The notes below the pieces were generated by a model. The model was not told the origin of the DNA. It was given only the letters and a program-made list of their open reading frames with translations, and did not search any database. DNA of 40,028 nt. Source: Malassezia furfur. Its lineage: Eukaryota. Location of the stretch: NCBI GenBank assembly GCA_052055015.1, contig JBQJIT010000055.1; one strand, given 5' to 3'. Position numbers and translations under genes: made by a program. This document shows positions 1,191 through 40,028 of the stretch, piece by piece. The stretch's first letter is position 1. Every line of letters starts with the position of its first letter.

Positions 1191-3130
1191 ATGTCGGGCG
1201 CTGCGCGAGGACATGTGCCCGCGCGCCTGCGTGCGCTGCCGCGCGACCAGCTGGGGTGTGCGCACCTCGCAGACACGCCCAAGGACAAGATGGATGCGCT
1301 GCTCGAGCGGTACGCGGCTGCGCTGCGCTACGGCCGCCGTATTCTCGAAGGCGACCTGCGCCCCCACGACGCAACGGACGCCGAGGAGCCGCGGAGCAAG
1401 CGCTCGCGCCTCGAGTACCCGACGTGCGCCGTGTGTGGCATGGACCTGCGCCGCCCGTACGTGTGCCTGACGTGCGCGTACACGGCGTGCTTCTTCCGCG
1501 ACCCCATCACGGACGCCGCCGCCGCCGCCGCGTCGTCCGCCGGCGCGCACGAGCCTGCGGCGACAAACGGCACGGCGCACGCGCGCGACGGCACCGAGGT
1601 CGGCACGTCGCACATCGGCCTGCACCTCGCCGAGGAGGCACACCCGTTCGGTACGCCTGCACGCCCGCTTACCCAGCCTGCGACCTGGTGCACGGCACGC
1701 TGTTCTGCTCGGCGTGCGACGACGTGGTGTACGACCCGCGCTTTGAGTACGTGCGCCGCGTCGAGCAGCACCGTGCGCACGTGTACCGTGCGGACGAGGC
1801 CTCGCTCGACACCATGGCCGCACAGGATGCGCTGTGTACGTGGGAGAGACTGACGCAGCGCCGCAGGGCGAGCGCCTCGCCTCGGTGTGCCGCACGCCGC
1901 GCGGCCTGCGCAACATGGGCGCGACGTGTTTCCTGAATGTGATTCTGCAGTCGTTCCTGCACAACCCGCTGCTGCGCAACTACTTCCTGAGCGACCGGCA
2001 CAATGCGGCGCTGTGTGCGGTGGGCAAAGAGTGCCTCGCGTGCGAGATGGACAAGCTGTATGCCGAGGTACGTCGCCGTGCGTCTCACCCAGTTTTACGC
2101 GCGCCCGGACCACCGCGGCCCGTACGGCCCGACGTCGTTCCTGTACGCCATCTGGGTCGACAGCTCCTCGTCCGAGCTGTCGCAGACGGGGCAGCACGAC
2201 GCCCAGGAGATGTTTATTAGCGCGCTGAACGGCATCCACGGCGCGCTCACGCAGCACGCACACGAGCGCACGCAGCTCCCTGCGTTCCCACTCGACGTGC
2301 CCGACGCCAACAAGCAGCTGTACGAGCGCGCGGACCACCGCGCCAACGGGCAGCCCTACCTGGACCACGGCGCGGGGTGCCCGTGCGTGGTGCACCGCAC
2401 GTTCTGCGGCGTGCTACAGAGCAGCGTGACGTGCCTGCGGTGTGGCAAGGTGACGCACACGCGCGAGCCGTTCCTTGACCTGAGCCTCGACGTGCGCAGC
2501 GACGACGCGAGCGCCGGTGGCGTCGAGGACGCGGCGCTTGCGGCGCTCGCGAAGAAAAAGAAGCCCGGCAAAAAGGACGACAAGGGCGCCAAGCCGCGCG
2601 CAGGCACCGCCACGGCGACGCCCGAGCCGCGCGCACAGAGCCTGCACGCGTGCCTCGCGCGCTACTGCTCGCCCGAGCACCTCGGCGACGCGACGTACCG
2701 GTGCAGCGAGTGCCAGAACAGCGCGCGCGCCGTCAAGCAGCTCGCGCTGCTCACGCTGCCGCCTGTGCTGTGCATCCAGCTGAAGCGCTACGAGCACGCG
2801 GCCGCCGCGACCAAGGTCGACAGCCGCGTGCAGTTCCCGCTCGCGATCGACGTGCGCGACTGCTGCGTGGAGGAGGACGAGGAGCGCGAGCCGGCGCGCG
2901 ATCCGACCGCGTACGTGTACGACCTGTTCACCGTCGTCGTCCACGAGGGCTCGCTCACCTCGGGGCACTACACCAACTACTCGCGCTGGAAGCAGCAATG
3001 GTACCGCTTCGACGACGACAAGGTCACCCCGGCGTCCGTCGCACAGGTGCTCAATGCCAAGGCGTACCAGCTGTTCTACCTGCGGCGCAGCCTGTACAAC
3101 CAGGCGAGCCATGGACTGCATGCATCATAG
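1191..3130 (+). CDS. UBP8: SAGA deubiquitinase Ubp8/USP22 (zf-UBP + USP domain), 4 exons, 621 aa
   Basis: Exons 1191-1650, 1677-1835, 1859-2067, 2093-3130; introns of 26, 23 and 25 nt (GTACG..CTNAC.CAG) join the ORF-track pieces in frame. Zn-finger Cys/His pattern, Cys box GLRNMGATCFLN, QHDAQE and His box HEGSLTSGHY. Confidence 0.9.
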
Positions 3131-3189
3131 TGTCTCGTGGGAAGGTAGCTATCTAGCTAGAAGGGAGGAGGGGCGTTGCCATGCGCCGC

Positions 3190-4956
3190 CTACGACAGCC
3201 GTACGGGCTCCTGCGGGATCGGCTCGTGCGCAATCCACCGCGCAATGCGGTCGATCGTCTGGGTGCGCTCCGGCTCGAACCAGGAAAACATGGGGAATAC
3301 GTGCACGGCGTCCTTGACCTCGTCAAGCACCACCTCGCGCTCCTCCAGCGGGCACGCATCGCGCGCCGCAAAGTAGTCCGTGCTGTTGTGCAGGTGCGCC
3401 ACACGGTGCGAGCGGGGATAGCAGTCGCGCCAGACAAACTGCTCCGGCGCCTGTCCCGCGCTGATTCGGTCGCCGACGTACTCGGGGATGCCGTGCACGG
3501 TGCCCTGCGCGAGGCGGTGCGCGAGCGTGAGGTGCTGCTCGGTGTTGAGCTCCGCGCTGCCCGTCACAATGTAGGTGCGCTTCGGGAAGCCCGAAAAGCC
3601 CCAGTGCGGCGGCCGCCCGCCGCGCTCGCTGTCGAGCTGCAGCGACACGGGCGAAATGTACGGGTTCAGGTACGTCTCGCTCGCGGGGAGGCGCCCCAGG
3701 AACGCGCACACCGACGTGTTGCGGTACATGATCGACGAGTCGATAATGTCGCTATCGCGGTTCAGCACGGTCGTCGAGAACGCATTGGGCGCCTGGATCG
3801 GGCCACTGTGCGAGCGCGACACGTCGCTCCACGGGGAGATAAGCAACAGCGAGCCGGGCATCCCCGCGACCCGCTCGTCGCGCAGGTACCGACACAGCGC
3901 CAGCGCCAGGTTCCCGCCCGAGCTGTCGCCGGACAGCAAAATGTTTTCCGGCGCAAAGCCGCAATAGCGCGTCAAATACAGGTAGCCCACCAGCGCATCC
4001 ACCAGTGCCGCCGGATAGCTGCGCTTGGGGTGGTCGTGGTCCGCAAGGCGATACTCGAGCGCAAACAGGCGCCGCGGTACGTCGCCCTTGCACTTGGTCA
4101 GCCGCGCAAGCAGCTGCCGGTCCATGCCGGCATTGGGGCTGCTCTCATGCGCACTGCCCATCCAGTACGCACCGCCATGCAGATAGTAGATCACCTGCTC
4201 ATTGGGCTGTGCCGGCGTCGTGCAGTGCAGGTCGCTCTTGGGTGCAAAGTACCAGTATCCACAGATGCGCTCCAGTGCCACCTCCTGCATCGCCATTGCG
4301 CGCAGGAGCTCGCCGCGGAAGTCGGGGCTCTGTACAAGGTTGTCCGACGACGGCGCTGGGCGCAGAAAGCGAGCCGGCTCGATCCAGGTAAACTCACTGT
4401 GCTTCAGCTTCGGCTCGTGCTTCGGTGCTTTTTTGGTGAGGATGACGTGCGTCTTGCACGCATAGCTGATGCACCGACGCAGGAAAATAATGGTGATGCT
4501 CCGCAGCCACGACCACGACGGACGGCCACGCTGGCTGCGCGGAATGGTTCGGATCGCCTGCCACGGCAGGAACACGAACGCAGTGACCAGGATAAAGAAC
4601 ACGGTATACAGCGCCTTGAGCGGCTGGTGCACCCACATGGGGGGTTCCTGATTAAACTCGGACGAGCGGCCATGGCCCTGGTTGGGGAAATTGATCGAGG
4701 GGAGGAACCGGGGAAGATGATGCGGGAACAGGTTCGTGCCGACTCGGGGAAAAACGGTGGGGGCGTGGAATATAGTATGGTACACAGAGGTAGGTGTCTT
4801 TTCGTGGGACTCGGACGACCGATGCTCAACAAAGGTGTCTGTCAGGTCCGCACCATCCACACCCTTATCGTGCGGACGATCGCTCGAGCCATCTTCTGAT
4901 ACAAGTAGCGTAGGCTCGCGTGAGTCAAAAAAGGTAGACCCGAGCCCTTTCTTCAT
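3190..4956 (-). CDS. Alpha/beta-hydrolase of the hormone-sensitive-lipase family (esterase/lipase, Say1-like), 588 aa
   Basis: YYLHGGAY oxyanion motif, nucleophile elbow GDSSGG, LLLISPW, C-terminal His motif DAVHVF, and an N-terminal hydrophobic segment VFFILVTAFVFLPW. The first in-frame ATG is at 4956; the ORF-track start 4971 is GTG. Confidence 0.85.
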   Translation of the reverse strand: MKKGLGSTFFDSREPTLLVSEDGSSDRPHDKGVDGADLTDTFVEHRSSESHEKTPTSVYHTIFHAPTVFPRVGTNLFPHHLPRFLPSINFPNQGHGRSSEFNQEPPMWVHQPLKALYTVFFILVTAFVFLPWQAIRTIPRSQRGRPSWSWLRSITIIFLRRCISYACKTHVILTKKAPKHEPKLKHSEFTWIEPARFLRPAPSSDNLVQSPDFRGELLRAMAMQEVALERICGYWYFAPKSDLHCTTPAQPNEQVIYYLHGGAYWMGSAHESSPNAGMDRQLLARLTKCKGDVPRRLFALEYRLADHDHPKRSYPAALVDALVGYLYLTRYCGFAPENILLSGDSSGGNLALALCRYLRDERVAGMPGSLLLISPWSDVSRSHSGPIQAPNAFSTTVLNRDSDIIDSSIMYRNTSVCAFLGRLPASETYLNPYISPVSLQLDSERGGRPPHWGFSGFPKRTYIVTGSAELNTEQHLTLAHRLAQGTVHGIPEYVGDRISAGQAPEQFVWRDCYPRSHRVAHLHNSTDYFAARDACPLEEREVVLDEVKDAVHVFPMFSWFEPERTQTIDRIARWIAHEPIPQEPVRLS

Positions 4957-5150: not shown

Positions 5151-6136
5151 TTATAGGTCCGCTACCAAAGGTGGAGGTTCAAGCACCGCCTCGTCCCAGG
5201 GGCCACGCAGCTCATGCTTCCAGCGTTGCGCGTAGCGCATCCATGCAGGACACAGCACACTCACAAAGACGATCCCACTGGGGACCAACACATAGGCCAG
5301 CAGCGCATGCAGGGGGTATAGGGCATACAGACACGCGCCCGCTAGCAGCACCGTGAGCGGCACCGCCGCACGCGGCACACCCGGTGCCTTGGCGGCCGCG
5401 TAGCGCGCGCCATACGCAAGGTAGATGCGCTGGCGTAGCAGTGGAAAGATGGCAAAAAGCTGCAGCGCCGTGAGCAGCAGTGCAAACACGTCAATGTCCC
5501 ACGTCAGCCGACTCGACAGCACCACACTCGCACACATCGCCAGGTTCAGGCTCAGCGTCGAGGACAGCAGCGTATGCGACGGCGTCACCATGTCATAGTT
5601 TGCCAATGCAAGGTGTGCACCAAAAAGGATCGCAGAAAAGGCCCAGATGCTATCGCTCGTCGTCGCCTCGCTGAGCGTGCGCAGCACGGGCGAGAGTGCA
5701 TGCAAGATCAACGCCAGCACGCCAAAGCTCGGTAGGCTCAGTCGCAGGGATGGCTGCTGTACGGATGCTCGGCCGGGGATCCCGCAGCATGCCAACAGCA
5801 GCGTGCACACCAAGCTACCGGCGACCAACGTGGGCGCCAACAGGGTGCCCTGGTATACATGCACAAACAGGGCCACGAACAGCAGGACCATTAGGATCTG
5901 CTGTACAATCCCCAATGACGACAGCACAATCGTGCCAAATTCGGGGAATGCGGCCGTCGCTGTGGGTCAGTGCGCGCGGCACACGTACCATTCGTGCGAA
6001 GCTCGCTCAAAAACGATGCGTCCACGTGGTTGTCCGGATACGGTTGTGCCTTCCAGAGCAATTTTTGCCAGGGCGGCCCCACTTCCTCAGTGCGGACCGG
6101 CTCCGGACCCGAAGAGGCGCCCGCCGCAATGCTCAT
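5151..6136 (-). CDS. GPI2: GPI-GlcNAc transferase subunit Gpi2/PIG-C, 2 exons, 318 aa
   Basis: Exons 6136-5989 and 5959-5151; 29-nt intron 5960-5988 (GTACGT..CTGACCCACAG). Motifs WQKLLWKAQPYPDNHVD, LSPVLRTLSEATTSDSIWA, LSLNLAMCASVVLSSRL and KHELRGPWDEA. Confidence 0.9.
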
Positions 6137-6576: not shown

Positions 6577-8462
6577 ATGACGAGCGCGACTCAGGGTCCA
6601 ATACCTATTGCCAGGGGTGGCGACGGCATCCAGAATGGAAACAGTGAGTCAACCGCGCCAACTAGGTTCGGTGCAAGTGCCGGAGCGGGAAGTTATCTGG
6701 GAATGAGCGGCAGCCTTGGCGGCAGCAGCAGCTTCAAGGAGTCGATGGCGCTCTCGTTCGGCAAGGACGTGGCCGAGTACGTACTGCATCAGCATGCACG
6801 CACATACTAACACCTCGAAGCCTGCTCGAGTACTCGATTGGGCGATTCTCGTCGTCAACCGACTCGGATGCCACAGTGGCGGCGCCGTCGTCTGTGCGGC
6901 TAGAGTCCACCTTTTGCCGCAACTTTACCTGCTGCGGACGCGGCCTAGACGATCTGCACGATCTGCTGCAGCACTACGAAGAGTGCCATGTGCGGTTTGA
7001 GGACGAGGACGAGGACGAGATGCAGTCGATCATTACCGACGAGGAGCTCGAGACCACGAGTATGGGCTCGGATGCACCGGGGACCGCTACGGCGGCGACG
7101 GCATCGCCGCTCGCGAGCCCTGCAAGCACCAAGGCGCACGCGGGCGTCGACCGCGTCGCAGAACTCAAGCGTGGGCGCCCTGTCAACGACTCTACCACTC
7201 CCATGATGGTCACCGCCGCCGAAGACCTCGACTCCCCGAGCGCGTTCGACACGGCAGTCATGCGTTCGCCATCGACGAGCCGGGGCAAAAAGCGCGCGTT
7301 TGGTCAGCCTGGCATGGCGGCCGGCAGCGCAGCCAACCCGCTGTACCGCGCACTTGTGGACGGCGGCATGACGCGCCATCCGTTCGGAGTGAACAACATC
7401 TACTCGCCGTCATCGCCCTTTTCGACGCCGGGAAGCTCGCGTGCGGGTACGCCGTCCCTGGACTCGGATAGCGAGACGTTCTTTGGATCAAGCACGCAGC
7501 CGAGCGTCTTTTCCAACTTGTCGATCCGCGGAAACAACGCAGACGACCATCAGCTTCCATCGTGTGCGCCGCCGAACCTCTTCTTCCCTTCGGCGGCCGC
7601 CAACACCTCGAACCGGCCTGCGAAGCGCGAGCGCTTCAACTCGAACACGAGCAGTGCCGCGCCAAGTACCACCAGTTCCGCATCCAACGCAACAAGCAAC
7701 GCGTCGCCTTTGCCGACCGACACAAGCGCCGGCGAGCACCGGCCTTACAAGTGCCCTGCGCCCGGCTGCGACAAGACGTACAAGCAGATGAATGGTTTGA
7801 AATACCACCGCTTGCACGGTCACTGCAATCAGAACCTCCGCAACACAAACAACAATTTGGTTATGCAATCCAATGATGCCACATCCACCGTTTCACGACC
7901 CAGCACACCGGTCAAGGACAACGACGGCAACGCATCCATGGCGACTGATACACAAGCCTCGGCGCCGAATGCGCCCGACTTGGCTGCGTTTGGCATCCAC
8001 AGCACAGCGGGGCCGACCAGCGGCGACGCGCAGCAGCCCCGTGACGCTCCGGCGACGCCCACGAAAGCCAACAACGGCTCGGGCCAGTTGGAGAAGACGT
8101 ATGTCTGCCAGGTGGGCAACTGCGACAAGCGATACAAGAACCTGAACGGTTTACGCTACCACTACTTGCACTCGGGCTCCCACGGCTTACTGGGTCTGCA
8201 GCTACTGCACGCCAACGGCGGCGGTGCCAGTGCCAAGGCCGACAGCGTCAGCGGACGCCCGCCCGTGTCCACCGAGACACTCTCGCGCGAGCAGATTGTG
8301 CAGGCGGCCGCCGCTGCACAGGCGCTGCTCAGCCAGCAGGCGCAAGCTCAGTGCGCCAAAAATGCTTCGTCTACGCCAGGCACGCAGCCGAACTCGGCGT
8401 CGTTTTTGGCGGCATTGGGCAACGGCAATCTCTCGCTCACCAGCGGTGGGCAGCCGCGGTAA
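6577..8462 (+). CDS. SFP1: Sfp1-like split C2H2 zinc-finger transcription factor, 2 exons, 613 aa
   Basis: Exons 6577-6776 and 6821-8462; 44-nt intron 6777-6820 (GTACGT..CTAAC..AAG). Motifs LESTFCRNFTCCGRGLDDLHDLLQHYEECH, RPYKCPAPGCDKTYKQMNGLKYHRLHGH and CQVGNCDKRYKNLNGLRYH. Confidence 0.85.
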
Positions 8463-8643: not shown

Positions 8644-9224
8644 TTAGAACTTGATCGGGAGGATCTCGACCCAGTAGTTGTCTGCGTGTCAGCGGTGTGG
8701 GGAACGTACCAGGGTCCAACAGGAAGGCTGTCGTGTGAGTCGCCTGCGATGAGTCCACGTACCGATCGAGCGCATCTTGCCATCTGTGGTAAGCCAAAAT
8801 GGTACGTACCAGTCAGACGCTTCTGGAAGCGCACACCCAGGCGCTCAAAGCGCGCGCACGCCTCTTCCACGTTCTCGACCGAGATACCAATGTGGCCGTA
8901 GCCCTGCGGCTTGTCGTTGCCGTTGTGGTAGTGGAAGTCGGGGTCGTTCTCGGTGCCATGGTTGTGCGTCAGCTCCAGCAGACCCTCGCGCTCGCCACGC
9001 TTGCCGGTCTGGTGCTCGTAGCCCAAGAAGTACAGCGTGAAGCCGTCGTTCTTCATGGTGTCAATCAGCGTCATGCCCAGCACGTTTTGGTAGAAGTCGA
9101 GCGACTTCTGCGGATCCTTGACACGGACCATCGTGCTGCGTGAGCAATTCATGCGTACTGGTTCAGGCGGAAACTGGCGGTCTCTAACGGTAAACTAGCT
9201 TCACATACCTGGCGTCGTAGGCAT
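8644..9224 (-). CDS. GLO1: Glyoxalase I (lactoylglutathione lyase), single-domain, 6 exons, 147 aa
   Basis: Exons 9224-9209, 9183-9159, 9135-8810, 8783-8763, 8727-8710, 8681-8644; introns 25, 23, 26, 35 and 28 nt. The spliced product [22 protein letters not shown]...[11 protein letters not shown]...GYGHIG...[25 protein letters not shown] carries all four metal ligands (H, E, H, E). Confidence 0.92.
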
Positions 9225-9469: not shown

Positions 9470-10918
9470 CTACCGCTGAGCCTCCGGTTCCACCGCCGCG
9501 TCGGTCACTGGGTTGCCCGAACCCTGCTCCGTCGTGAGAGACATGTTCTTCATGCCATCCACGGGCGCGGCCGAGGCAGCTTGTTTCTTCGACTTCCGAG
9601 ACGGCTTGTAAGGCACACCTGCCGCGGCCGCGTTCGCAGCCGCCTCCTCTTCCGTCTCTGCGAGACCGCCCTCGGACTTGAGAATGAACGGAGCCATGCG
9701 GGGGTTCACTGCGTTAGTTATCCATACATACCCTTCTTCTCCTTCTTCTTGGTCTCCTTCGGCTCGTCCTCGGGGTAGGCAAGTGCCTTCACTTTGCGGA
9801 AGTCCTCGCTGGACGTATACATCTCCTGCACAGGCTCCAGCAACGAGATGAGCGCCTGCGTCACCGCCGTCTTCAGGTCCTGCGGGTGCACTTTTTGCGC
9901 CTTGAAGTCTTCCACGAGTGAGGCGTAGTTGTTGTAGTGCACCGTGCCTCCGTACTTTTCCGGACGAACGATGCTAAACAGCGTTTCCGCGGGCGCATCG
10001 CTCGGAATGAGCGGACGCACCCAGTGCGAATCGAGCTCGACGCCCATGCTCTTAGCATCGTTGCGCAGGCGCATGATCGGCATCAACACGGAGCCCACAA
10101 AGGCAATCACACCGTTGTTCTCAATCTCGCCCGGCATGCAGTAAGCACCCTTGATCTTGCGCTTAATATCCGCAGGCGAATCCAAGAAGTCGATCTTGGA
10201 GTCCACATCAGACGACGACATCTTGGCGCCGTTCATGCCCGGCACCATGGGGTTCATCAAGTGTGCGCGCTTCATGTAGCCAAGCTTCGGCAAGTACTGT
10301 TCAGCGAACGTGAAAATCTTGCGCTGGTCCACACCACCGAACTGGAAATCCACATCGAGGTACTGCTCGTCCAGCGCCTGCAGGCCGGGGTAGAGCAAAC
10401 CGCTTAGCAGCGGGCTCTCGACCTGCTTCACGACTTCGGCGCCCGCCTTCTTCGCGTCACGCTCCGTCACCATCGCAGCAAGACGGTAGGTATCAAAGTT
10501 GTACTTCTCCGAAAGCTGGTAGGAGGATCCCAACACGAAGTTGAGGCGGTCGGTCGGCACGCCGATGGCCTTCATCACCGCGACCAGAATGTGCTGGTAG
10601 TAGTCAGCACGGTGCTTGACCAGCTCGATCGGTGCCTTCATATTGTCAAGGAACGCGTGGATGTCTGTGTCAGCACAATTACCTACCAGCCAAAAGCACC
10701 TTGACATTCACGCCCGCGCGCAAGAAGTCGGCGAGCTTCGTGAGCGGCACAAGATAGCCGACGTGGGGACGGCCCGTGGGAGCGGTACCCCAGTAGCACT
10801 TAACAGGGCGCTCATTCTCCTGGAGAATCTTCAAAATGGTCTCTCCACCGAGAACCTCATCGAGATCACGCGTAAGGAGGTGGTAGCGGAAGTCCGCCGT
10901 GAGCTCCTCGGAAGACAT
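9470..10918 (-). CDS. TYS1: Cytoplasmic tyrosyl-tRNA synthetase, 3 exons, 467 aa
   Basis: Exons 10918-10687, 10664-9732, 9708-9470; introns 22 nt (10665-10686) and 23 nt (9709-9731). [14 protein letters not shown] (HIGH), [15 protein letters not shown] across the splice junction, [11 protein letters not shown] and KMSSS. Confidence 0.93.
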
Positions 10919-11825: not shown

Positions 11826-13713
11826 CTACATGGGGGGCTGCGCCATGCGCTCCAACGCATTGACCAGTTGCTCCATCTGGGTGAGTGGGAGGTACACGTA
11901 CCCCTTGTGTCGTGGACACGCTCCATACTTCGAACTCCGATTGCGGCTCGTCAAGTGTGCCGATCAGCGCTTGTGCATTGGGGCCTGCAGCGTCGGCCAT
12001 CGTCTTTTCGTAACAGGCAAGCTCCTTACTAAGTTGGTGCGCACACGCGCGGCCAGGGCCAATGCAAATGAACCGCTGCACCCCTTGCTCGACCAGCGTG
12101 TGGATAGCCTTCACCCAGTAGACCGGCTTGTCTAGTGCATCGGCAAGGTCGCTGCGGACCTCGTCGATGTTCTGAAAGATGCGGCCGTCGTACGACGATA
12201 CGACCGGGAGCGCCGGGTTCAGCCCGCCAATTGGCATAACGTCCACCAGAGAGCGGTATTTTTCCGCGGCCTCCGAAACCATAGTGGTGTGGAAGGGACC
12301 GGCCACCGGCAAGTTTACGGCGCGTGCCCCGTACATTTTGAAACGCAGACGGTCGCAAGCATACATCACACCCACGCGCGTCCCGGAGAGCACAATCTGG
12401 AGCCGCGAGTTGATGTTGGCCACTGCGACGAATTCGTCGGACGCGATGCCCTGCACTTCGCCGTCGCGAATCTCGCGTTGGACCTCTTCGACTTCGCGGA
12501 GCGCGTCCTCCAGGCGTCCCGGACGCACAACGACGGCGCTCACCTGCGTCCCCTTCCATGTGCGTGAACTGCCATCGTGCTGCGCAATGTCGGCAAGGTC
12601 ATCGGACGGCTCAGAGACCAGCAGCTCGCTGCCCTTCCCAGTACCGGCGTTGGCAAAGCCCCACGTCTCATATATATTGACCGGAGGTGTGCATCCCTCG
12701 GGGAACAGCACGGGATGGTTCACCAGACAATTCATCGCCTCCAGCCCGCGGTAACGCAGTGCGCGTAGTGCATCTTCCTGCTGCAAGCAGCCGGCCGCGA
12801 CCAGCGACGCGTACGTTCCCGAGCCGTGGCCAGTCGCCCACGACACCTGTTGCTCCACGAAGTCCACCCCGAATTCTTCCCGTAGCACGGCCAACATCGC
12901 CAGGGTGCACGCAAGAATCGCCGGGGTGGCGTTTTCGGAGCGCGTGAGCTCAAGCTGGTTGCCGGAGAAGACGAGGTCCAGTAGCCATCCAGGCTTGAGG
13001 GACTTGTTTGGCTCAAGTTCGGACAGGTGCTGGAGCTTGCTCTCAAATGCATCGCGCAGCGGATTGGGGGGTAGAGACTGGTCCAGGCGACGACCCTCGA
13101 TAAATGCAGTGAGCGTGGCTTCGGCTTCCTCCCACACGCGCCGTGCGGAAGGGTACATTTCGTATAGGTCGCGCGACATCGTCACGTACTGGGACCCCTG
13201 TCCAGGGAGTATCAGGGCCGTCTTTTTGGGCTCCAGCGGTCGCCCATGGTATCCTTCACCGATGCCCGCGGCACTGCGTCCCGCCAGCGGCGGCACGACG
13301 CCAGATGAGACCCACGATGATGCATTGAACGAGGTAGATGGGTCCGAAAACGTGCGGAGCTCGGGCAGCGGGTGCTTGGGCGACGCATACTCGGCATGGG
13401 TCGATGCCTGTCCCTCCGGGGAAATGCCCGCCGCAGCACGAAGCGCCTTACTTGCACCTGCGCGCGAACGGCGGCGATTGTCGGTGACGGCAGACTTGCC
13501 TGCGTGTGCACGCACAAACTGGACGGGCCGGGTCGCCTCTGATACCGTCGATTCGGCCAAGTCGTTTTGCGACGGCGGCTGGGGTGTTGGGGTGTCGCCG
13601 TTCGACGGAGCCGATTCGCCCTCGCCTTTGTCACTCCTGCGCCATAGATACCTTACTTTGGGGTTTGCGGATGTGGATCTCGCTAATACTCGTGGTATCC
13701 AGGGGCGTAGCAT
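11826..13713 (-). CDS. MCT1: Malonyl-CoA:ACP transacylase (FabD/Mct1)-like protein, probably mitochondrial, with an atypical active site, 2 exons, ~620 aa
   Basis: Exons 13713-11902 and 11876-11826; 25-nt intron 11877-11901. Motifs LILPGQGSQ, LRYRG, VANINSRLQIVLSG, LPVAGPFHT, PVYW and FICIGPG. The Arg-rich, acid-free N-terminus MLRPWIPRVLARSTS suggests a presequence. The start codon is inferred. Confidence 0.8.
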
Positions 13714-15323: not shown

Positions 15324-15630
15324 TTACTCGTCGTCGTAGCCCGACACCGGTTTCCGGGGACCCTCAGGGACTGTGTGTGAGCGCGCTGGAGCAAACTTAC
15401 GAGGATAGGTAATCGGGATCTTCTCTGCGGGCTTCCAGCCGTAGGACGCGCGCACGCGCGGCACGGTGACCACCGCAATGGGACCCATGAACCCGACGAG
15501 CAGCGAGAAGAAGACAACGGGGCGCTCGTGTGCCGAGGCACGCTGTTGTTAGGTTTCGTATTGTGTGCGGACGTACGAGGTATTTGAAGGTGTTGTTGAA
15601 CGGCCGCACGGCAGCAGAGAGGAACGACAT
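15324..15630 (-). CDS. NADH:ubiquinone oxidoreductase 9.5-kDa accessory subunit (NI9M/NDUFA3-like), 3 exons, 80 aa
   Basis: Exons 15630-15577, 15542-15401, 15370-15324; introns 34 and 30 nt. Product MSFLSAAVRPFNNTFKYLRASAHERPVVFFSLLVGFMGPIAVVTVPRVRASYGWKPAEKIPITYPLPEGPRKPVSGYDDE has one TM helix plus the IPxTYPLP...GYDD pattern. Confidence 0.85.
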
Positions 15631-15944: not shown

Positions 15945-17699
15945 ATGACGTCCCCGTTTATCGAGGCGATGGACCCCTTTTCTATCTCACTCACGGAACT
16001 CGATGATCCGTTCATGGATCTCAGTGGGAACGGGTCGCTGCCGCTGGACGACGCACTCGACATTGTCCATGGCACGCCGCGAGCGCTACAGAAAGAGTTT
16101 GTTGCACACCGCCCGCCCGGCTCCGATCTCGCCGCGGCACTGGGCAAGTCGCCACGCATGGGTATACTCGACCCCCTCAGTGAGCCGAGCACGTGGTTGT
16201 CGCAGAGTACATGGACCGCGACGCTGCACCCCGACGAGGCCAGCGGCGGCCTCGAGAGCAGCTCGAGCACCACGAGCACCAGCAGCATGTACAGCCTCGC
16301 ACGCACCTCGCACGCACCCGCAGATACCACCATGCGCGGGCCGTTCGGCAGCGGCAGCAGCGCAGACAGCGAGCACGAGTTTGGCGACGTCTGGCACGCC
16401 GCGATGCATGCCTCGCCCGATGTCCCCTCGGCGATCTCCTCGACGTCGTCCGAGTCGTTGCTCCGCGCATCGCCCATGTCGATGCGCACCCCCAACCAAT
16501 CGCCTGCAGAGACCGGCACGGGCACGTCGGTGCCTGTGCCTGCGCGAAAGGAGCGTAGGTCGTTTGATGCACACACGTCGACGCCACCCTCGCTACCCTC
16601 CTCTCACGACGCAGCGCACGCACACGGCGTGCTGCGTCCGCCAGGCACACCGAGCGACCGCGCCGTGAGCGAGATGGCCTCGACGCCGCCCGCGTCGCTC
16701 GCGAGCCAAGCGCTCCGATCCAGCCCAGTTCATGCACGGACCGCGCCCGTGGTGATGCGCGGATGGGCCGAGCCGTACATGATGCAACAGGTGCAGGCCC
16801 TGTCTGCGATGGGATACACGCCGCACACGGATCCCGGTGCACTGAGCCATCTCACAGGGACGTTTGCGCCGCTCAGCATGCACGCCATGAGCTCGGCGGC
16901 GCCCCAGGCGCTGTTTGTCGACCCGCAGTCGACGCAGGCGGAGATTACGTCGCCGCACGGCAGCTGGGACCCCTCTGGAACTCCGACATCGTGGGCCACG
17001 CGCACACCCACGCTGTCCACGATGTCGCTGCAGCAGGCGCTGCCCATCTCACCGACGCGGCGCGGGCGCCCGTCGGTGGCCAAGACGCCACGCAAGGCAC
17101 AGAGCACGCCGCTCTTCCAGATCACCACCATGTCCGGCGCCGAGCCCACGACGGTGCCGGCGGTGCCCGGCACCACCACGCCCGGCCGTACACGCGGGCC
17201 CCAAAAGGCGCTCCGGAAACACACGAGTCACCGGCGTATGAACGCAGGTGCGGGCGCGAACACCATGTCGCCCGTGCCCGACGCCAAGGCCGCGCACGGC
17301 TCCCGGCTGCGCGCGCGGGGCTCGATGATGGCACTGCGGCAGGCAAATGCGATGCAGGCGGCGGCCAAGCCGGCGTCGGCCCCGCGGAAGCCAATGACGC
17401 TCAGCTTTGTGAACTACGGAATTGACGATGCCGAAGAGTTGTGTTCGGCCGTGGCGCCGAGCGGCAGTTACAAGGTGCCGCTGCGCGGCTACTCACGCGA
17501 CTCGGACGGCGAGGAGGAGGAGGCAGATGACGCGATGCACGACAGACCCACGCCCACGCCCACACACAAGCCGCTGCGCCATGCCGCGTCCGCAGACACG
17601 GGCGCCGCAGGCCGAGCACCACCCGCTGCCAGCCCCGAAATCAAACGGCGGCAGACGACGGCGGTACTGCGCGAGCAGGCGAACCGGCAGGACGGATGA
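15945..17699 (+). CDS. WetA/Esc1-like putative regulator, largely low-complexity, ~584 aa
   Basis: Ser/Pro/Thr-rich ORF whose C-terminal SFVNYGIDDAEELCSAVAPSGSYK (17403-17474) resembles the ESC1/WetA motif FVNFT...GVAPSGSSK. The first in-frame ATG is at 15945. Confidence 0.65.
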   Translation: MTSPFIEAMDPFSISLTELDDPFMDLSGNGSLPLDDALDIVHGTPRALQKEFVAHRPPGSDLAAALGKSPRMGILDPLSEPSTWLSQSTWTATLHPDEASGGLESSSSTTSTSSMYSLARTSHAPADTTMRGPFGSGSSADSEHEFGDVWHAAMHASPDVPSAISSTSSESLLRASPMSMRTPNQSPAETGTGTSVPVPARKERRSFDAHTSTPPSLPSSHDAAHAHGVLRPPGTPSDRAVSEMASTPPASLASQALRSSPVHARTAPVVMRGWAEPYMMQQVQALSAMGYTPHTDPGALSHLTGTFAPLSMHAMSSAAPQALFVDPQSTQAEITSPHGSWDPSGTPTSWATRTPTLSTMSLQQALPISPTRRGRPSVAKTPRKAQSTPLFQITTMSGAEPTTVPAVPGTTTPGRTRGPQKALRKHTSHRRMNAGAGANTMSPVPDAKAAHGSRLRARGSMMALRQANAMQAAAKPASAPRKPMTLSFVNYGIDDAEELCSAVAPSGSYKVPLRGYSRDSDGEEEEADDAMHDRPTPTPTHKPLRHAASADTGAAGRAPPAASPEIKRRQTTAVLREQANRQDG

Positions 17700-17803: not shown

Positions 17804-18192
17804 TCACGGCGCGGGCGCCGAGGGCACATCGAGGCCGACGGTGCGTGCCGTCGCCTTGATGCGCTCCTGCTCAGACATGCCGTACAGCGGGTTGTACTGC
17901 TCCATGAGCTTGTTGAACACGCGCTTGCTCCGCAGGAACAGCTCGAGGTCTGCGAGTGCAGACTGGCTGTGCTTTGTGTCTTCCAGCTGCTGCGTAAAGG
18001 CGGCGAGCGGCGTATTCTGTGCATCGGTGCGCGATGGCAGCTGCGGGTTAGACGTTCGCGACGTACCGCATCGCGCAGCTCGTCAAAGACCTTCGCCGCA
18101 AGTTCCTTGGGCGTCGCACGCGTCCGCGCCGCTTCCAGCGACGCGAACGAGAACAGGCTCGCGGATGCCTTCCGAGCCGCAGCCGACGACAT
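17804..18192 (-). CDS. FMC1: ATP synthase assembly factor Fmc1 (mitochondrial), 2 exons, 120 aa
   Basis: Exons 18192-18067 and 18040-17804; 26-nt intron 18041-18066. The C-terminus FLRSKRVFNKLMEQYNPLYGMSEQERIKATARTVGLDVP matches the Fmc1 pattern. Confidence 0.8.
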
Positions 18193-18358: not shown

Positions 18359-21852
<3,494 letters not shown>

Positions 21853-21923
21853 GAACACGTGCTCGGCGAGGTCCGTGCGGGCGTGCAGGGGACGGGTGTT
21901 CCGTAGTTTCGTTTCCCTCCAAC

Positions 21924-22716
21924 ATGGCCCGTTACTGTCTTTACTATTGGCCTCAGATCCCGGGGCGTGGCGAGTTTGTGCGCCTCGCATTCGAGTATGC
22001 CAAGGTGTCGTTCAGTGAGGTGAACGACATCGAGACGTTGCAGGCACTCACGGACCCGAAGCGTGCCGAGGCAGGACGGCCGCCACACTTGGCAGTCCCA
22101 CTGCTCGAGGTGCAACAGGGCGACACGCACGCCTATGTGAGCCAGACGCCGGCGATTCTTGACTACCTCGCGCCCAGGCTCGGGCTCGCAGGCACGCAGC
22201 CGGATGTCGACCCCGCCGTGACGCGCGCACACATCCTCCAGCTCACGCTCACGGCGCTGGACTGGGCAAATGAGGCACACAACGTGCACCATCCGATGTA
22301 CGTGCACAAGCTTACCACAGCGGTGTTGGACTCTACTACGAGCAACAAAAAGAGGCCGCTGCCGAGGCCGCCAAGCAGTTCCGTGAGGGACGCATCCCGA
22401 AGTTTGCAACGGTACGTGTGCGTCCTTTCTCACATAGTATTTTGAAGCGACGCTCGCGCAAAACTTGCGCGCGACCAACGTGCGGCGGGTGCTCGGCACC
22501 ACGACGTCCATCGCGGACCTTGTCCTGTTCCAGGTACTCGAGGGGCTCCACTTTGCATTCCCACGGACGATGCAACACGCGGCATCTTCGACGCCGGAGC
22601 TCGGTCGCTTCCGCTCAGAGATCGCCACGGAGCTAGGCGCGTATCTGCAAAGCACGCGCCGCCGCGCCTTCAACGACGGCCTCTTCCGCCATTATCCTGA
22701 GCTCGACGCGCCGTAG
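21924..22716 (+). CDS. Glutathione S-transferase, 3 exons, 247 aa
   Basis: Exons 21924-22297, 22321-22411, 22438-22716; introns 23 and 26 nt. Motifs LYYWPQIPGRGEFVRLAFE, SQTPAILDYL, HHPIGVGLYYEQQK, RIPKFATYFE, SIADLVLFQVLEGLHFAFP and GLFRHYPELD. Confidence 0.88.
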
Positions 22717-22767
22717 GAGCGCCTGTGCGCCAAAATATTTTCGTAATCCCACTCCTCTGTTGCGACG

Positions 22768-24917
22768 ATGGCCGCCGAGACCGACGCGGACGCGTCGGCG
22801 CGGACGCAGTTCTATACCCAATCGTTCACCATCTTCACCTCGCTGCAGTCGATCGCCGCATCGCAGCAGCAGGAAGATCGCGGCGAGGATGCGGCGGCAT
22901 GGCTGGCAGCGGGGCCGTCAGTGCAGACGATGCAGTACTATTACCGTATTGGCACGTTGTATTGCGACACGCTTCAGACATACATTGACGCGCTCGAGGC
23001 GAACTCTACGAGTGATGCCGATTATCTGAAGCACATACAGATGCTCCAGACCCTCTTCCACCTCGCGCAGGTGCTCTACCTCCCCGAAGACGGGCGTGGG
23101 ATGGGCGTGCTCGGCGAAGAGCTGCTGCACTGGCTCAACGCTCACGACATCGGTACGTGCAGTCCCTCACGCAGCTCCCACAACTGAACAGGGCCAACAA
23201 ATTGCCCAGACCTCGCCGTCGTATGACCATCCGGAGTTCTGGGACTATCTGTTCCGCTGCGTCCTGCGCGGCTTCTACACGACGGCCGCGACGGTACTGC
23301 AGAGCTACCACGCCCCAGGCGTATCACCCACGCTACAAAACATTGCCAGTGAGACTGCCCAGATCCTCAAGTCGCTCCCACGGTCCACAGGGTACGCGAC
23401 CGAGCCGGCGTTTTTCGCGGCGCATCGCAATTGGCATACGTCGGTGCGCGTTTTCTTGTCGGGTCTGCAACGCAAGATGAACGCCGTTCAGTCTGAGCTA
23501 AGCTCGAGCGGGCACGCACATGCCGAGGAAGAACGCCTCGAGCTAGAGGCACAGTTCCGCTGCCTACTCGAGCTGCTGTGCGGCGTGCAGGATAGGATTC
23601 TCGAGTTTTCGGAAAACTGGGTCGAGGCACTGTGTGCATGGGGCACGCTTGTCCAGCCCGCGATGAAGCGCGATGATCTTCCGTACGTTGACCCACTCAC
23701 ACAGCGAGGTCGTTCAATTGATTACCGACCATCTTCAGCCCGATGGCACGCTTAGCAGCGACATGATCCTCGTGTCCTTAATGCGCGGCGACGTCACCAA
23801 AAGCATCAAGCAATGCCTCCCTTTTGATGAGTGGCTCGCGGCGCACCTGGGTGACCTGTGCAGCAAGGCCCTGCTCCTCGACGAATCGCAGCAAAACGAC
23901 GGAGCACCGCTGATGGACACGGTACTATTTGCGTGGGCAGACACGTTACTGAACGAGGAGCGGCTCTGGCGCATGGCCCTGTCGTACCTGGCCGTGGTCC
24001 AGACGCCTGCGGCACGCTCCAAGATGCGCGGCGTCCTATTCAGCGTGCCGCTGATGGACATCGACGACGCTGATGCGCAGTTCAAACAGGTCGAAGAAGT
24101 GCTCGGCGCATGCATCGAGTATGGAATGGACGACGAAGTACGCGTCATCTGCAAGGTACGTCCCACACCTCACACAGCGTCTCGGTCACAGCCTTATGGA
24201 GCACAAAAAATACGGCCTGGCGATCGCCTACAGTGTCCGCGCGCGCGACGCGCGACAAGTCCGCCAGATCGCTGAGCAGATGCTGCACGATTTTGTGGAG
24301 CACGGTGCAGAGCAGTTCATCAAGAGCGTCGACACCATCCCGCGGGTGCTGCTGGACAATGCGGAGACCGTGGCCATTGAGGCGGGGCTCACCGCCGACA
24401 ACGCCGAGCTTGCGACGCCCTTCGCGACGGTGTCGAGCATCTTTTCGACTGAGACGTTTGCGCCGCTCGTCTTCCATGTAAAATACCGCGACTTCCTCGA
24501 GCTATTTGCGGACAAGAGCACCTGGGCCGATGCGGCGCACATCCTCGTTGGCCTACTTACTAGCGACGTGACGCCCGAGTCGTTCTTGGCCGTGCTCCTA
24601 GTCAACGCATTGCCGCTCATCCAAGGTGCGTCGCGGAAGCTAACGCAGCGCCCGATCTCTACTTTACACTTTCCGAGACGTACGAGCTGTTACGCATCGT
24701 CGAAAAGGTCGCGCCCGCCGCGGCGCAGACCCAAGCGGAGGCACAGCCGGCTTACTACTTCTCTTGGCTCGAGCAGCTCCTCGCCCGCGAGGCAGGCACA
24801 TCCACCGCGTCACCGGCGGCCCAGCGCAAGCTGGTCCAGGAGCGCATGCTCACCGTGCGTATCGCTGTGGCTCAGTACCTTTCGCGCGTGCTCGTTGAGG
24901 GCGCAGAGAGCGCGTAA
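22768..24917 (+). CDS. NUP85: Nucleoporin Nup85, 5 exons, 686 aa
   Basis: Exons 22768-23152, 23175-23682, 23705-24155, 24178-24625, 24649-24917; introns of 22, 22, 22 and 23 nt each restore the frame. Motifs LLHWLN, FWDYLFRCVLRG, WVEALCA, FDEWLAAHLGDL, LWRMALSYL and C-terminal VRIAVAQYLSR. Confidence 0.82.
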
Positions 24918-25113
24918 GACACCTCGGGCGACCTGAGCGTTGTCGTAGAATATGCATTTGCATGGTATGAGCACAATGGTCTAAATACTGCCTTGACTGT
25001 TCCTAGTGGCAACACAAACTGCCGTGCGTCACGCCATCAAGACAGTCGACGGAACATGTGCAGGCGCAGCAAATAAACGCGAGATTTTTTTTTGAGAGGA
25101 ATCGCTTCGTAGC

Positions 25114-25565
25114 TTAAACCACGGTGCCGGCGTTCGAGGCGATACGCGGCCAGAGGTCAGCCTGTAGATTAGTATTCTGCAAGGCACACGCCAGATACGT
25201 ACACATTCCTTGGCAACCGGGCCCGTGATGGCACTGCCCTTCATCTCACCCTTGGGGTTGACAATGACACCGGCGTTGTCCTCGAAGTACAGGAAAACAC
25301 CGTCACGACGGCGCCACGGCTTGCGCTGGCGGACAACAACAGCAGCAAGCACCTTCTTCCTGAGCTCGGGCTTACCCTTCTTGACGGAAGCCACGAACAT
25401 GTCGCCCGCAGCCGCCGCGGGAAGACGGTTCATCGCCGCACCAACACCGACAACGGCAATGACGAACAGGTTCTTTGCACCCGAGTTGTCGGCGCAGTTG
25501 ATGACCGCACCCACCGGGAGACCCAGCGTCATGCGGTACTTGTTACCCATAGAAACCTTCGGCAT
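25114..25565 (-). CDS. RPL23: 60S ribosomal protein L23 (uL14), 2 exons, 136 aa
   Basis: Exons 25565-25203 and 25161-25114; 41-nt intron 25162-25202. Sequence [20 protein letters not shown]...[43 protein letters not shown]. Confidence 0.95.
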
Positions 25566-25630
25566 GGTGACGTTACGACGGTTGAGAGGATCAAACGAGT
25601 GCGTTGAGGCTTAGGTTGCCCAGTTTGGTA

Positions 25631-25646
25631 CTATATAACACGTGAC
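25631..25646 (-). promoter_or_regulatory. E-box (GTCACGTG) abutting a TATA-like element upstream of RPL23
   Basis: The minus strand reads GTCACGTG-TTATATAG, about 66-81 nt upstream of the RPL23 ATG at 25565. Confidence 0.45.
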
Positions 25647-25782
25647 ATTATTCCAAGAATGGCAGAATTATACCTCCACCAATACTTAGATCGGGCAATC
25701 GGGATACAGATGGCGCGGCCGGCCGCGGCGGCGCATGTGGAGCGGTTGACGCTCGAGTCGCCGGGGTGGGAGGAGTACTTCA

Positions 25783-26738
25783 TTAGTGTCGGATGAGACT
25801 CAGAAATTCTTCGCGGGTTTTTTGACGGTTGCGGAATACACCAAGCATGCAGCTCGTAACCGTGCTCGCGCCGGGCTTTTGAACGCCGCGCATCGACATA
25901 CACATATGCTCATACTCCATCACCACGGCCACGCCACGCGGCTTCAGTGCTTCATCGAGCGCCAGTGCAACTTGGCGCGTAAGTCGCTCTTGTACAGAAA
26001 GACGCCGCGCAAACGTTTCAGCAATGCGCGCCAGTTTCGAAAGGCCGATCACCATCCGGTTGGGGATGTAGCCGATGTGGATCTGGGTTAGTAGGCACCA
26101 AAATACGCACCTTGCCCGTAAACGGCACCAGGTGGTGCTCACACAAGCTGTAGACAGGTATGTCTCTGACAATTACCATCTCGTCATGATCCTCATCAAA
26201 TATGGCATTCGAGATCACGTCTAGGGTTAGCATCCGGGGTGTGTCGATTTTCACGTACCACACAACTGCTCCTCGTACCCCTTGGTCATCCACAGAAGCG
26301 CACGAGCATAGCGTTTGGGGGTATCTTTGAGTCCTTCGCGCTCCGGGTCCTCGCCAAGACATTCCAAAATGGTCTTGACTGCCCCCTCGAGACGCTTCTC
26401 GTTCGCTTTGGCCTCTTCCGGCGTTTGGCGCAAGCGGTCCAACGTTTTCTTTGCGGGCCAGCCAAGTCCGTCCTTGTTCATAACAGACTGCAACTTCTCT
26501 GATACTTCCGAGAAACCGTTGATGTTGGTTTTGGCGCCCGTAGGCGTGCCCAAACCACCTCCGTGCTTAGTGATCACTTCGTTCTGAAGCGAGCTGGTGG
26601 AGTTCATGACAGGAGGATCCGATTCATAGCCGTCCTCTGTATGCTCATCCTGCGCCGTGTTAGTCTCATTTCATATATGTTACGTACATCGATCGGCCGC
26701 TTCGTCCCCCGCTGCGTCTGCTCCGCTTCCGACGACAT
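25783..26738 (-). CDS. FOL2: GTP cyclohydrolase I, 4 exons, 283 aa
   Basis: Exons 26738-26688, 26649-26259, 26220-26111, 26082-25783; introns 38, 38 and 28 nt. Motifs [49 protein letters not shown] and HMCMSMRGV. Confidence 0.93.
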
Positions 26739-26914
26739 TTTTGTGAGAAGTCGCTGTGAACCTCCACGTTGCGCACAGGGAGTATGCTTGAGTAGCTAAT
26801 GATGACGTAAACTAGCGTAGGCCTCCGCTCTCTAATCACCTGTTCCTGATTGGATGAGCAGTAGGGCGGGGTTGGTCTCCTAGGCTACCCTAAGCTTAAA
26901 CCTTGTCTCTAACC

Positions 26915-27234
26915 ATGTCGAAGAGCATTACGCTGGACGAAGTGAAGAAGCACAACTCGGGTATGTATGGTCGAGATGCTCCACCACTCGGCGTGGGAAA
27001 GTCCAGATTGCTAACACGGGCGCAGACGAGTCGGCCTGGGTCGCCATCAAGGGCAACGTCTACGACGTGACCGAATTCTTGGACGAGCACCCGGGTGGTC
27101 GCAAGATTCTGCTCAAGAACATTGGCTCGGATGCGACGTCTAAGTTCGTGAACTACCACCCCGACTACGTGCTGAAGGAGGTTGCGCCGAAATTCAAAAT
27201 CGGCTCGCTCGCAGAGGGTGACTCGAAGCTGTAA
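26915..27234 (+). CDS. Small soluble cytochrome b5-type heme protein with C-terminal PTS1 (SKL), 2 exons, 84 aa; absent from the ORF track
   Basis: Exons 26915-26960 and 27026-27234; 65-nt intron GTATGT..CTAAC..CAG. Product [84 protein letters not shown] has HPGG plus the second heme His. Confidence 0.9.
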
Positions 27235-40022: not shown

Positions 40023-40028
40023 CGGATA

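Follow-up and report, generated by a model that had tools for sequence, protein, structure and literature searches.

The locus described here raises two questions: whether the short interruptions in the coding sequences of its genes are spliceosomal introns and, if they are, whether introns this small call for an altered spliceosome. The window, that is, the whole stretch of DNA analysed, comprises 40,028 nucleotides (nt) of Malassezia furfur (assembly GCA_052055015.1, contig JBQJIT010000055.1), and positions are counted from its first letter. Between 1651 and 27025 we find 32 introns in 16 genes. These segments are non-coding GT-AG interruptions; their exact removal restores the reading frame and conserved protein sequence. 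They are very probably ordinary U2-type (GT-AG) spliceosomal introns of the furfur clade of Malassezia that have shrunk to near the physical floor, and the tiny-intron regime is not special to this locus but normal for the genus.

The intron set was rebuilt from the sequence. We trained a codon log-odds table on the long uninterrupted open reading frames (ORFs) of the window and ran a dynamic programme on each gene that was agnostic to splice motifs, allowing GT..AG introns at a fixed penalty and scoring codon usage only. This search placed 24 introns, 13 of them identical to motif-defined introns. The final set is that of a motif-informed run with three homologue-based corrections: two added introns in GLO1, two added introns in SEC13, and a start codon at 13859 for the nucleoside transporter gene (ENT). 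The lengths are 21, 22 (four introns), 23 (five), 24, 25 (three), 26 (four), 27, 28 (three), 29, 30 (two), 34, 35, 38 (two), 41, 44 and 65 nt; the median is 26 nt, and 25 of the 32 are 30 nt or less. An earlier note on this DNA had listed 32 introns in 16 genes, and our set agrees with that list item by item, with the same lengths, median and share at or below 30 nt. Over the 24 genes of the window, the density is 0.91 introns per kb of coding sequence.

The splice signals can also be recovered from the sequence without reference to the genes. A motif scan returned 38 raw matches, 26 of which are exact members of the 32. We compared motif counts with those in 100 dinucleotide shuffles, counting both strands. 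The pattern GTACGT.{5,30}CTNAC.{0,3}YAG occurs 16 times, against 0.1 +/- 0.3 in shuffles (maximum 1); the looser GTRNGT.{5,50}CTNAY.{0,4}YAG occurs 31 times, against 4.2 +/- 1.8; and the 3' element CTNAC.YAG occurs 23 times, against 6.9 +/- 2.8. GTACGT is present at 20 sites (40 when both strands are counted), compared with 13.8 +/- 3.8 in shuffles counted in the same way.

Splicing makes sense of the reading frames. Once spliced, each of the 16 coding sequences is open from its ATG to its stop codon, while retention of the intron causes a frameshift or a premature stop in 29 of the 32 cases. In a bounded frame test, the best-scoring frames on either side of an intron were scored independently, so that agreement by chance has a probability of 1/3. 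Removal of the intron is consistent with the flanking frames in all 24 testable introns (binomial P = 3.5e-12), and in all 21 of those whose length is not a multiple of three (P = 1e-10). The other eight introns fall outside the test, as their flanking exons lack the length or the score it needs; all eight are covered by homology or orthology. The bounded test took the place of a looser tally of GT..YAG pairs, in which 47 of 110 candidates counted as 'consistent'; that tally was uninformative because pieces with a length divisible by three inside exons are trivially consistent.

Homology carries the evidence further. For 24 of the 32 introns, the junction is verified by continuity of a Pfam or PDB match, by gap-free alignment with distant homologues, or by orthologous DNA from L001 and L004, syntenic loci of two other Malassezia-like lineages. 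Pfam profiles run continuously across the junctions of UCH intron 3, GPI2, TyrRS intron 1, PRP43, GST intron 2, NUP85 intron 3, and GCH1 introns 2 and 3. The five-intron model of GLO1 is identical to an NCBI M. furfur protein (P0027) at 146 of 147 residues, so its introns are in effect already in GenBank; spliced GLO1 matches the conserved basidiomycete termini, including the N-terminal ETASxRxNHTM, and the unspliced reading does not. Three introns have a length divisible by three and contain no stop (30, 30 and 24 nt), and homologues or orthologous DNA show that each of them is non-coding. The introns and the evidence for each are as follows.

1651–1676, plus strand: UCH intron 1, 26 nt, GTACGC...CTTAC-C-CAG; placed exactly by the motif-agnostic search, consistent in frame; retention gives a frameshift and a premature stop.
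1836–1858, plus strand: UCH intron 2, 23 nt, GTACGT...CTGAC-G-CAG; motif-agnostic search and frame; retention gives a premature stop.
2068–2092, plus strand: UCH intron 3, 25 nt; motif-agnostic search, frame and Pfam continuity, the UCH profile running from exon 3 (to position 56) into exon 4 (residue 10 at position 66).
5960–5988, minus strand: GPI2 intron, 29 nt; motif-agnostic search, frame and Pfam continuity (exon 1 reaches position 27 and residue 6 of exon 2 is at 34, continuous when the split codon is counted).
6777–6820, plus strand: intron of the C2H2 zinc-finger gene, 44 nt, with the sole AAG acceptor; motif-agnostic search and frame; retention gives a premature stop 11 codons past the junction.
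9184–9208, minus strand: intron 1 of GLO1 (glyoxalase I), 25 nt, GTATGT...TTTAC, after a 16-nt first exon; homologues.
9136–9158, minus strand: GLO1 intron 2, 23 nt, after a 25-nt exon; homologues.
8784–8809, minus strand: GLO1 intron 3, 26 nt; the spliced C-terminus is gap-free against homologues, the unspliced one is not.
8728–8762, minus strand: GLO1 intron 4, 35 nt, after a 21-nt micro-exon; homologues.
8682–8709, minus strand: GLO1 intron 5, 28 nt, after an 18-nt micro-exon; homologues.
10665–10686, minus strand: intron 1 of cytoplasmic TyrRS, 22 nt; motif-agnostic search, frame and Pfam continuity (tRNA-synt_1b, exon 1 ending at 44, split codon 45, exon 2 residue 2 at 47); exon 2 residue 1 aligns with residue 80 of yeast TyrRS.
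9709–9731, minus strand: TyrRS intron 2, 23 nt; motif-agnostic search and frame; the next exon is a low-complexity tail, and retention gives a premature stop 4 codons past the junction.
11877–11901, minus strand: intron of the acyltransferase-domain gene, 25 nt, near the 3' end; motif-informed model and frame; the motif-agnostic search picked a different nearby GT..AG.
13939–13959, plus strand: ENT intron, 21 nt, the shortest, with the putative branch A at 16; homologues, motif-agnostic search and frame. It splits the conserved LAPF/NTLV of the first transmembrane helix (spliced ...LLGMSMLAPF/NTLVTSLAYF); the spliced protein is gap-free against 15 of 16 aligned homologues (P0268 lacks the N-terminus), and the unspliced reading meets a stop after 5 codons.
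15543–15576, minus strand: NDUFA3/NI9M intron 1, 34 nt; frame test; exon 2 aligns from residue 17 of the PDB NI9M chains onward, so that an 18-residue exon 1 fits before it.
15371–15400, minus strand: NDUFA3/NI9M intron 2, 30 nt, divisible by three and stopless; read through, it is a 10-residue insertion at exactly this point relative to PDB 7zm7_g, 6yj4_b and 6rfq_g.
18041–18066, minus strand: intron of the LYR-motif gene, 26 nt; motif-agnostic search and frame.
19398–19427, minus strand: SEC13 intron 1, 30 nt, divisible by three, immediately after ATG; L001 and L004 have a frame-breaking intron at the same site, and the spliced N-terminus is that of the M. brasiliensis protein P0147.
19292–19319, minus strand: SEC13 intron 2, 28 nt; gap-free against homologues, shared with L001 and L004, motif-agnostic search and frame.
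18372–18398, minus strand: SEC13 intron 3, 27 nt, with an in-frame TAA at intron bases 2–4; splicing yields the C-terminus ...WECISDLDA (homologues have WECISDLDA or WECVSEMDS), and the unspliced reading ends ...WECISE.
21667–21690, plus strand: PRP43/DHX15 intron, 24 nt, divisible by three and stopless; an 8-residue insertion relative to PDB DHX15/Prp43 if read through, Pfam OB_NTP_bind continuous from 62/63 to 64, and orthologous DNA.
22298–22320, plus strand: intron 1 of the GST-like gene, 23 nt; motif-informed model and frame.
22412–22437, plus strand: intron 2 of the GST-like gene, 26 nt, TAG acceptor; frame and Pfam continuity (GST_C_3, exon 2 residue 29 of 30 at position 35, exon 3 residue 4 at 40).
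23153–23174, plus strand: NUP85 intron 1, 22 nt; homologues, absence in L001 and L004, motif-agnostic search and frame.
23683–23704, plus strand: NUP85 intron 2, 22 nt; the same evidence as for intron 1, with an approximately continuous Pfam profile.
24156–24177, plus strand: NUP85 intron 3, 22 nt; Pfam Nup85 continuous from 421 to 422–423, homologues, L001 and L004, frame.
24626–24648, plus strand: NUP85 intron 4, 23 nt; homologues, L001 and L004, motif-agnostic search and frame. Over all four junctions, spliced Nup85 is gap-free against the Nup85 of Violaceomyces, Acaromyces, Thecaphora and Melanopsichium.
25162–25202, minus strand: RPL23 (uL14) intron, 41 nt, CTAAT branch motif; absent in L001 and L004; exon 1 aligns with uL14 through ...GPVAKEC, and exon 2 is identical to residues 125–139 of PDB 8esq_V.
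26650–26687, minus strand: intron 1 of the GTP cyclohydrolase I gene (GCH1), 38 nt; frame, and a position shared with L001 and L004.
26221–26258, minus strand: GCH1 intron 2, 38 nt, TAG acceptor; absent in L001 and L004, Pfam continuity (GTP_cyclohydroI, exon 2 to about 44, split codon 45, exon 3 residue 3 at 48).
26083–26110, minus strand: GCH1 intron 3, 28 nt; Pfam continuous from 81 to 82, absent in L001 and L004.
26961–27025, plus strand: cytochrome b5 (CYB5) intron, 65 nt, the longest; frame, and a position shared with L001 and L004; Pfam Cyt-b5 begins at position 13 on exon 2 residue 2.

Two of these genes have unusually small exons. GLO1 (8644–9224, minus strand) consists of exons of 16, 25, 326, 21, 18 and 38 nt, with its micro-exons set between introns of 23–35 nt. 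A single 73-nt intron at 9136–9208 was rejected there as out of frame; it resolves into the 25-nt and 23-nt introns that flank the 25-nt exon. In SEC13 (18359–19430, minus strand), the first coding exon is the ATG alone, and the last is 10 nt plus the stop. A 43-nt motif match at 18909–18951 was discarded, as the SEC13 exon around it aligns continuously with homologues. The dominant donor, GTACGT, is its own reverse complement, and motif-only scans therefore echo real introns on the antisense strand, as at 6784–6807 (minus) and 15373–15408 (plus); these matches, together with those at 20767–20828 and 19483–19500, are such echoes or chance and have no role in the frame. Antisense echoes of this kind are a trap for automatic intron finders.

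One extra candidate stands outside the earlier list of 32:
16555–16614, plus strand: candidate intron, 60 nt, divisible by three and stopless, GTAGGT...CTCAC...CAG; found by the motif-informed model and the motif scan only, in a gene of 564–585 residues that has no family match.

What do these introns look like to the spliceosome? All 32 begin with GT and end with AG. At the 5' splice site, the last exon base is G in 20 of the 32, and within the intron +3 is A in 29, +4 is C in 25, +5 is G in all 32 and +6 is T in 30. The donors are GTACGT (20), GTATGT (3), GTGCGT (3), GTACGC (2), GTAGGT (2) and GTAAGT (2). None of the 32 donors is of the U12 type, all being GTAYGT, GTGCGT, GTAGGT, GTAAGT or GTACGC; U12-type introns have a rigid RTATCCTT donor and a TCCTTAAC branch site.

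For the branch site, we took the last YTNAY before the 3' end, a motif of our choosing, which gives putative branch points. The motifs are CTCAC (9), CTAAC (9), CTGAC (8), CTTAC (4), TTTAC (1) and CTAAT (1). Relative to the putative branch A, present in all 32, position -4 holds a purine in 25 introns, -3 a C in 31, -2 a T in all 32 and +1 a C in 31, and the base at -1 is free (A in 10, C in 9, G in 8, T in 5). The distance from this A to the 3' end of the intron is 5 nt in 17 introns, 6 in four, 7 in seven, 8 in one, 10 in two and 11 in one; a CTNAC-like element thus lies 5–7 nt from the 3' end in 28 of the 32. The exact ending CTNAC-N-YAG, a composite of branch and 3' splice site, is found in 17, and in every intron the AG used is the first after the putative branch A.

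Around this element there is no polypyrimidine tract in any of the 32 introns: the longest run of T is at most 4 in all of them, and the median longest pyrimidine run is 3. The tail past the putative branch A is 65% C and 5% T, and the spacer between donor and branch element, which shrinks to 6–8 nt in introns of 21–23 nt, has no pyrimidine bias (C+T 48%). The putative branch A lies at position 16 of the 21-nt intron and at position 17 of five others. The shortest introns sit at both minima, 16–18 nt to the putative branch and 5 nt after it, and we infer that the sharp lower edge of the length distribution (one intron of 21 nt, four of 22 and five of 23) reflects both minimum distances being met together. 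On each point of anatomy that the earlier note had raised, namely the counts of GTACGT donors and CTNAC-N-YAG ends, a branch motif that tolerates CTCAC and CTTAC, a branch A 16–17 nt into the shortest introns, and the missing polypyrimidine tract, our counts bear it out.

These features suggest a simple layout: a strong 5' splice site G/GTACGT, a spacer of at least 6 nt that favours no base, an R-CTNAC branch element and YAG. In such a layout, the A of CTNAC would be the branch point that pairs with U2, an entire intron of about 20 nt would be read as one unit, by intron definition, and the 3' splice site would be picked by its proximity to the branch and not by U2AF binding to a pyrimidine tract.

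Several points weigh against reading the segments as ordinary U2-type introns with this layout. Splicing is deduced here from DNA, homology and reading frame. For eight of the 32 introns (UCH introns 1 and 2, the zinc-finger gene, TyrRS intron 2, the acyltransferase gene, NDUFA3 intron 1, the LYR gene and GST intron 1), the evidence is frame and motif. The branch distances are partly circular, as they are conditional on defining the branch as the last YTNAY. Stopless introns with a length divisible by three may be under-detected, and the length and phase statistics are not unbiased. Public gene models of close relatives differ from ours at the junctions of Nup85 (P0001, P0002, P0003 and P0008) and at the C-terminus of SEC13 (P0147). 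Finally, a donor with C at +4 would mismatch the standard 5' end of U1, which leaves room for something non-standard.

We read the disagreeing models as mis-annotations because they delete or lack residues that are conserved in distant fungi. The four Nup85 models have 16-residue holes after the junctions, and the SEC13 model lacks the last, three-codon exon. In two ENT models, one (P0268) lacks exon 1 and the other (P0277) has a 6-residue insertion at the intron site, and the GLO1 predictions P0028–P0030, from ENA/Logan sources, read into or through introns. Tiny introns thus break gene models: blocks of 16 residues, terminal exons or N-termini are lost at the junctions of this locus.

The earlier note took the close spacing to imply that recognition has been remodelled, a step that the evidence here does not support in that form. 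That U1 and U2 could not occupy such introns together, with remodelling as the consequence, is arithmetically plausible: in the ten introns of 21–23 nt, the gap between the 5' splice-site hexamer and the CTNAC pentamer is only 6–8 nt, and in 17 of the 32, only 3 nt lie between the putative branch A and the AG. The missing pyrimidine tracts and the dominant donor with C at +4 point the same way. Nevertheless, the argument that 21–23 nt leave no room for U1 and U2 next to each other, and that early recognition has therefore been remodelled, is in our view unlikely to hold. Stentor, according to the consulted part of PMC9505925, has introns of 15–16 nt (15 nt in the representative intron) and a conventional set of small nuclear RNAs (snRNAs) and proteins, keeping all snRNAs and most proteins, including U2AF1/2 and SF3b. 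Myxozoans likewise keep U2AF1/2 and canonical branch recognition in the portion of PMC13644364 that we used. Given these conventional spliceosomes, remodelling is not required by tiny introns, and small size alone would not imply a remodelled machine. In addition, the window has a single spliceosomal gene, PRP43, and it is of the conventional kind, with a match to DHX15/Prp43 at E ~1e-42 and 85–86% identity across Malassezia lineages. On the remodelling view, Malassezia would have lost, truncated or co-evolved early factors such as the U1 5' end, SF1/BBP, U2AF or the anchoring contacts of SF3.

How do these introns compare with known systems? In Giardia and Trichomonas, microsporidia and chlorarachniophyte nucleomorphs, the branch element abuts the 3' AG as one composite motif, and in these lineages introns are few or the spliceosome is reduced. 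The likeness to the fused branch and 3' splice site of the Giardia/Trichomonas type is one of layout only, not of common descent; in contrast to those systems, introns in the window are frequent (0.91 per kb of coding sequence) and belong to a free-growing yeast. S. cerevisiae introns also have a strong 5' splice-site and branch consensus and rely little on a pyrimidine tract; they are tens to hundreds of nt long, their TACTAAC is rigid, and branch and AG lie farther apart. Unlike them, the window introns have a free base before the branch A and a branch-to-AG distance of 5–7 nt in 28 of the 32.

Ciliates, myxozoans and dicyemids also have very short introns. Like those of Stentor and other ciliates, the window introns are near the floor, begin with GT and end with AG, and have their putative branch A a few nt short of the 3' end. 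Ciliate introns, however, are AT-rich with a U-rich branch region, whereas the window introns are GC-rich, with a discrete CTNAC and a floor of 21–22 nt. The ultra-short introns of myxozoans and dicyemids, with a median of 22–27 bp and with U2-dependent recognition and U2AF retained (consulted part of PMC13644364), fall in the same size class; those of the window have a strong 5' splice site and branch element. The same 2026 paper, in the part consulted, treats introns below 30 bp as exceptional, naming ciliates, microsporidia and dicyemids, and makes no mention of Malassezia. The earlier note's placement of these segments in the size class of ciliate or microsporidian introns stands: they are genuine GT-AG introns of that size.

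Within the genus, the regime is familiar. The consulted part of the M. sympodialis annotation paper reports 5350 introns in a curated annotation, with a mean of 30 bp and 99% supported by RNA sequencing (PMC5389616); M. restricta has 2150 introns with a median of 30 bp (PMC9241646) and was re-annotated with a minimum intron length of 15–20 (PMC6473144); and Malassezia genes are described in a review as having 'very short introns' (PMC7426719). The introns of both species are of the same size class as ours; our count describes a single locus, and the data for these sister species extend the regime to whole genomes. Because of these published data, the ultra-short intron regime of Malassezia counts as already known, and the earlier note's remark that short introns have been reported in the genus holds; our finding is real but not new in this respect. 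Compared with other Malassezia, the GC-rich lineage of the window is intron-richer at the loci compared, and its introns are shorter within our sample of 32 (median 26 nt). In searches of the main texts of open-access papers, we found no description of the anatomy of the branch and 3' splice site for Malassezia, and the word 'branch' does not occur in the M. sympodialis paper (PMC5389616).

New here is the comparison with orthologous loci. A metagenome scan with the Nup85 of a relative (P0026) returned six loci; a scan with the window's Nup85 exon returned no relative. L001 (GC content 51%) and L004 (54%) are syntenic with the window over SEC13-PRP43-NUP85-RPL23-GCH1-CYB5-kinase. The GST-like gene (21924–22716, plus strand), which lies between PRP43 and NUP85 in the window, has no counterpart at the syntenic position in either. 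The comparison spans 21667–26258 of the window, 900–7200 of L001 and 900–7100 of L004, and 12 window introns are comparable. Eight of these are precisely absent from uninterrupted ORFs in both loci: the four of NUP85, GCH1 introns 2 and 3, and those of PRP43 and RPL23. The four shared introns differ in length:

SEC13 intron 1: 30 nt in the window, 25 nt in L001, 25 nt in L004.
SEC13 intron 2: 28 nt in the window, 38 nt in L001, 28 nt in L004.
GCH1 intron 1: 38 nt in the window, 36 nt in L001, 32 nt in L004.
CYB5 intron: 65 nt in the window, 41 nt in L001, 43 nt in L004.

The introns of L001 and L004 share the layout GTAYGT...CTNAC...YAG. RPL23 in both carries a 41-nt intron of its own after ...ELRKK (L001 5729–5769, minus strand; L004 5713–5753, minus strand), a site that is uninterrupted in the window (25203–25565), where the intron instead follows ...AKEC.

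These eight precise absences could mean that the high intron load of the window lineage is a recent gain in the furfur clade and not a retention of old introns, and the density of 0.91 introns per kb would suit a gain when set against the Ustilaginomycotina median of 0.14 per kb in a comparative survey that treats M. sympodialis as intron-poor (PMC8476143). Such surveys may miss some of the tiny introns, however, and published densities may be too low in consequence. The four shared introns are all 5'-proximal (after residues 1, 27, 17 and 15), whereas the eight absent ones are internal or 3'. Retention of introns toward the 5' end is the classic pattern of loss mediated by complementary DNA (cDNA), and in this comparison of the window with two relatives, the bias would fit cDNA-mediated loss in the relatives better than gain in the window lineage. 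The RPL23 intron that L001 and L004 have and the window lacks indicates turnover in both directions. Taken together, we regard recent gain as quite unlikely. As to an introner-like origin, nearly every base of a 22-nt intron is splice signal, so sequence similarity is uninformative.

There is next to no chance that the interruptions are assembly or sequencing indels, recoded read-through or the result of splicing at more distant sites, given that GT..AG ends and a branch-like YTNAY (CTNAC in 30) are found in every one of the 32, that 29 would break the frame or stop translation if retained, that the NCBI GLO1 protein follows the five-intron model, that P0028, from an independent assembly, reads the last three GLO1 introns gap-free against the window's unspliced translation and so has segments of the same length, that syntenic relatives have introns of differing length at the same four positions, which rules out assembly artefacts, and that the Nup85 models using more distant sites drop 16 conserved residues. 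Of the outcomes that the earlier note had named as fatal to its reading, assembly indels are refuted, since independent assemblies carry the same interruptions, and splicing at more distant junctions would remove conserved residues.

The locus itself has a GC content of 56–73% per 2 kb and is dense with eukaryotic housekeeping genes identified by Pfam. We count 24 genes, of which 23 can be named from Pfam or PDB matches: NopRA1, UCH ubiquitin hydrolase, an alpha/beta hydrolase, GPI2, the C2H2 protein, glyoxalase I, cytoplasmic TyrRS (assigned as such by a PDB search), emp24, the acyltransferase-domain protein, the nucleoside transporter, NDUFA3/NI9M, the LYR protein, SEC13, PRP43/DHX15, GST, NUP85, RPL23, GTP cyclohydrolase I, cytochrome b5, a KA1 kinase, a CCT subunit, a WD40/DUF3337 protein and an EH/SH3 protein. 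The gene at 15945–17699 has no family match. The nearest named matches are Malassezia proteins, which puts the window in the furfur clade: Nup85 exon 2 is 97% identical to M. brasiliensis and 96–98% to M. furfur models; GLO1 exon 1 is 99% identical to M. furfur, and SEC13 has 99% identity with M. brasiliensis. The 32 introns are confined to the first 27 kb. The remaining 13 kb (27026–40028), which holds the long kinase, CCT, WD40/DUF3337 and EH/SH3 genes, has no intron and no motif match on either strand. A tRNA gene lies at 36454–36537 (plus strand, 84 nt, 52 bits in Rfam); ARAGORN reports a four-base anticodon, 'cggt', and assigns no name, and this may be an intron-containing tRNA.

What do these introns mean for Malassezia? 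The genus can be transformed and mutagenised, as stated in the consulted part of PMC5654937, and it would therefore be a practical system for studying the minimum length of an intron and the minimum distance from branch to 3' splice site. We think it doubtful that the floor of 21–22 nt, the 5-nt distance from branch to AG and the GTACGT donor mark a lineage-specific change in early spliceosome assembly. Tentative candidates for such a change, which we would not expect to hold, are a U1 5' end that co-evolved with C at +4 and a choice of 3' splice site that is independent of U2AF65 and SF1. If a change of this kind were real, Malassezia would be a case so far overlooked by reviews of ultra-short introns and the only culturable, transformable yeast with introns of ciliate size, and the clades of the genus, whose intron loads differ more than two-fold, would offer a natural experiment.

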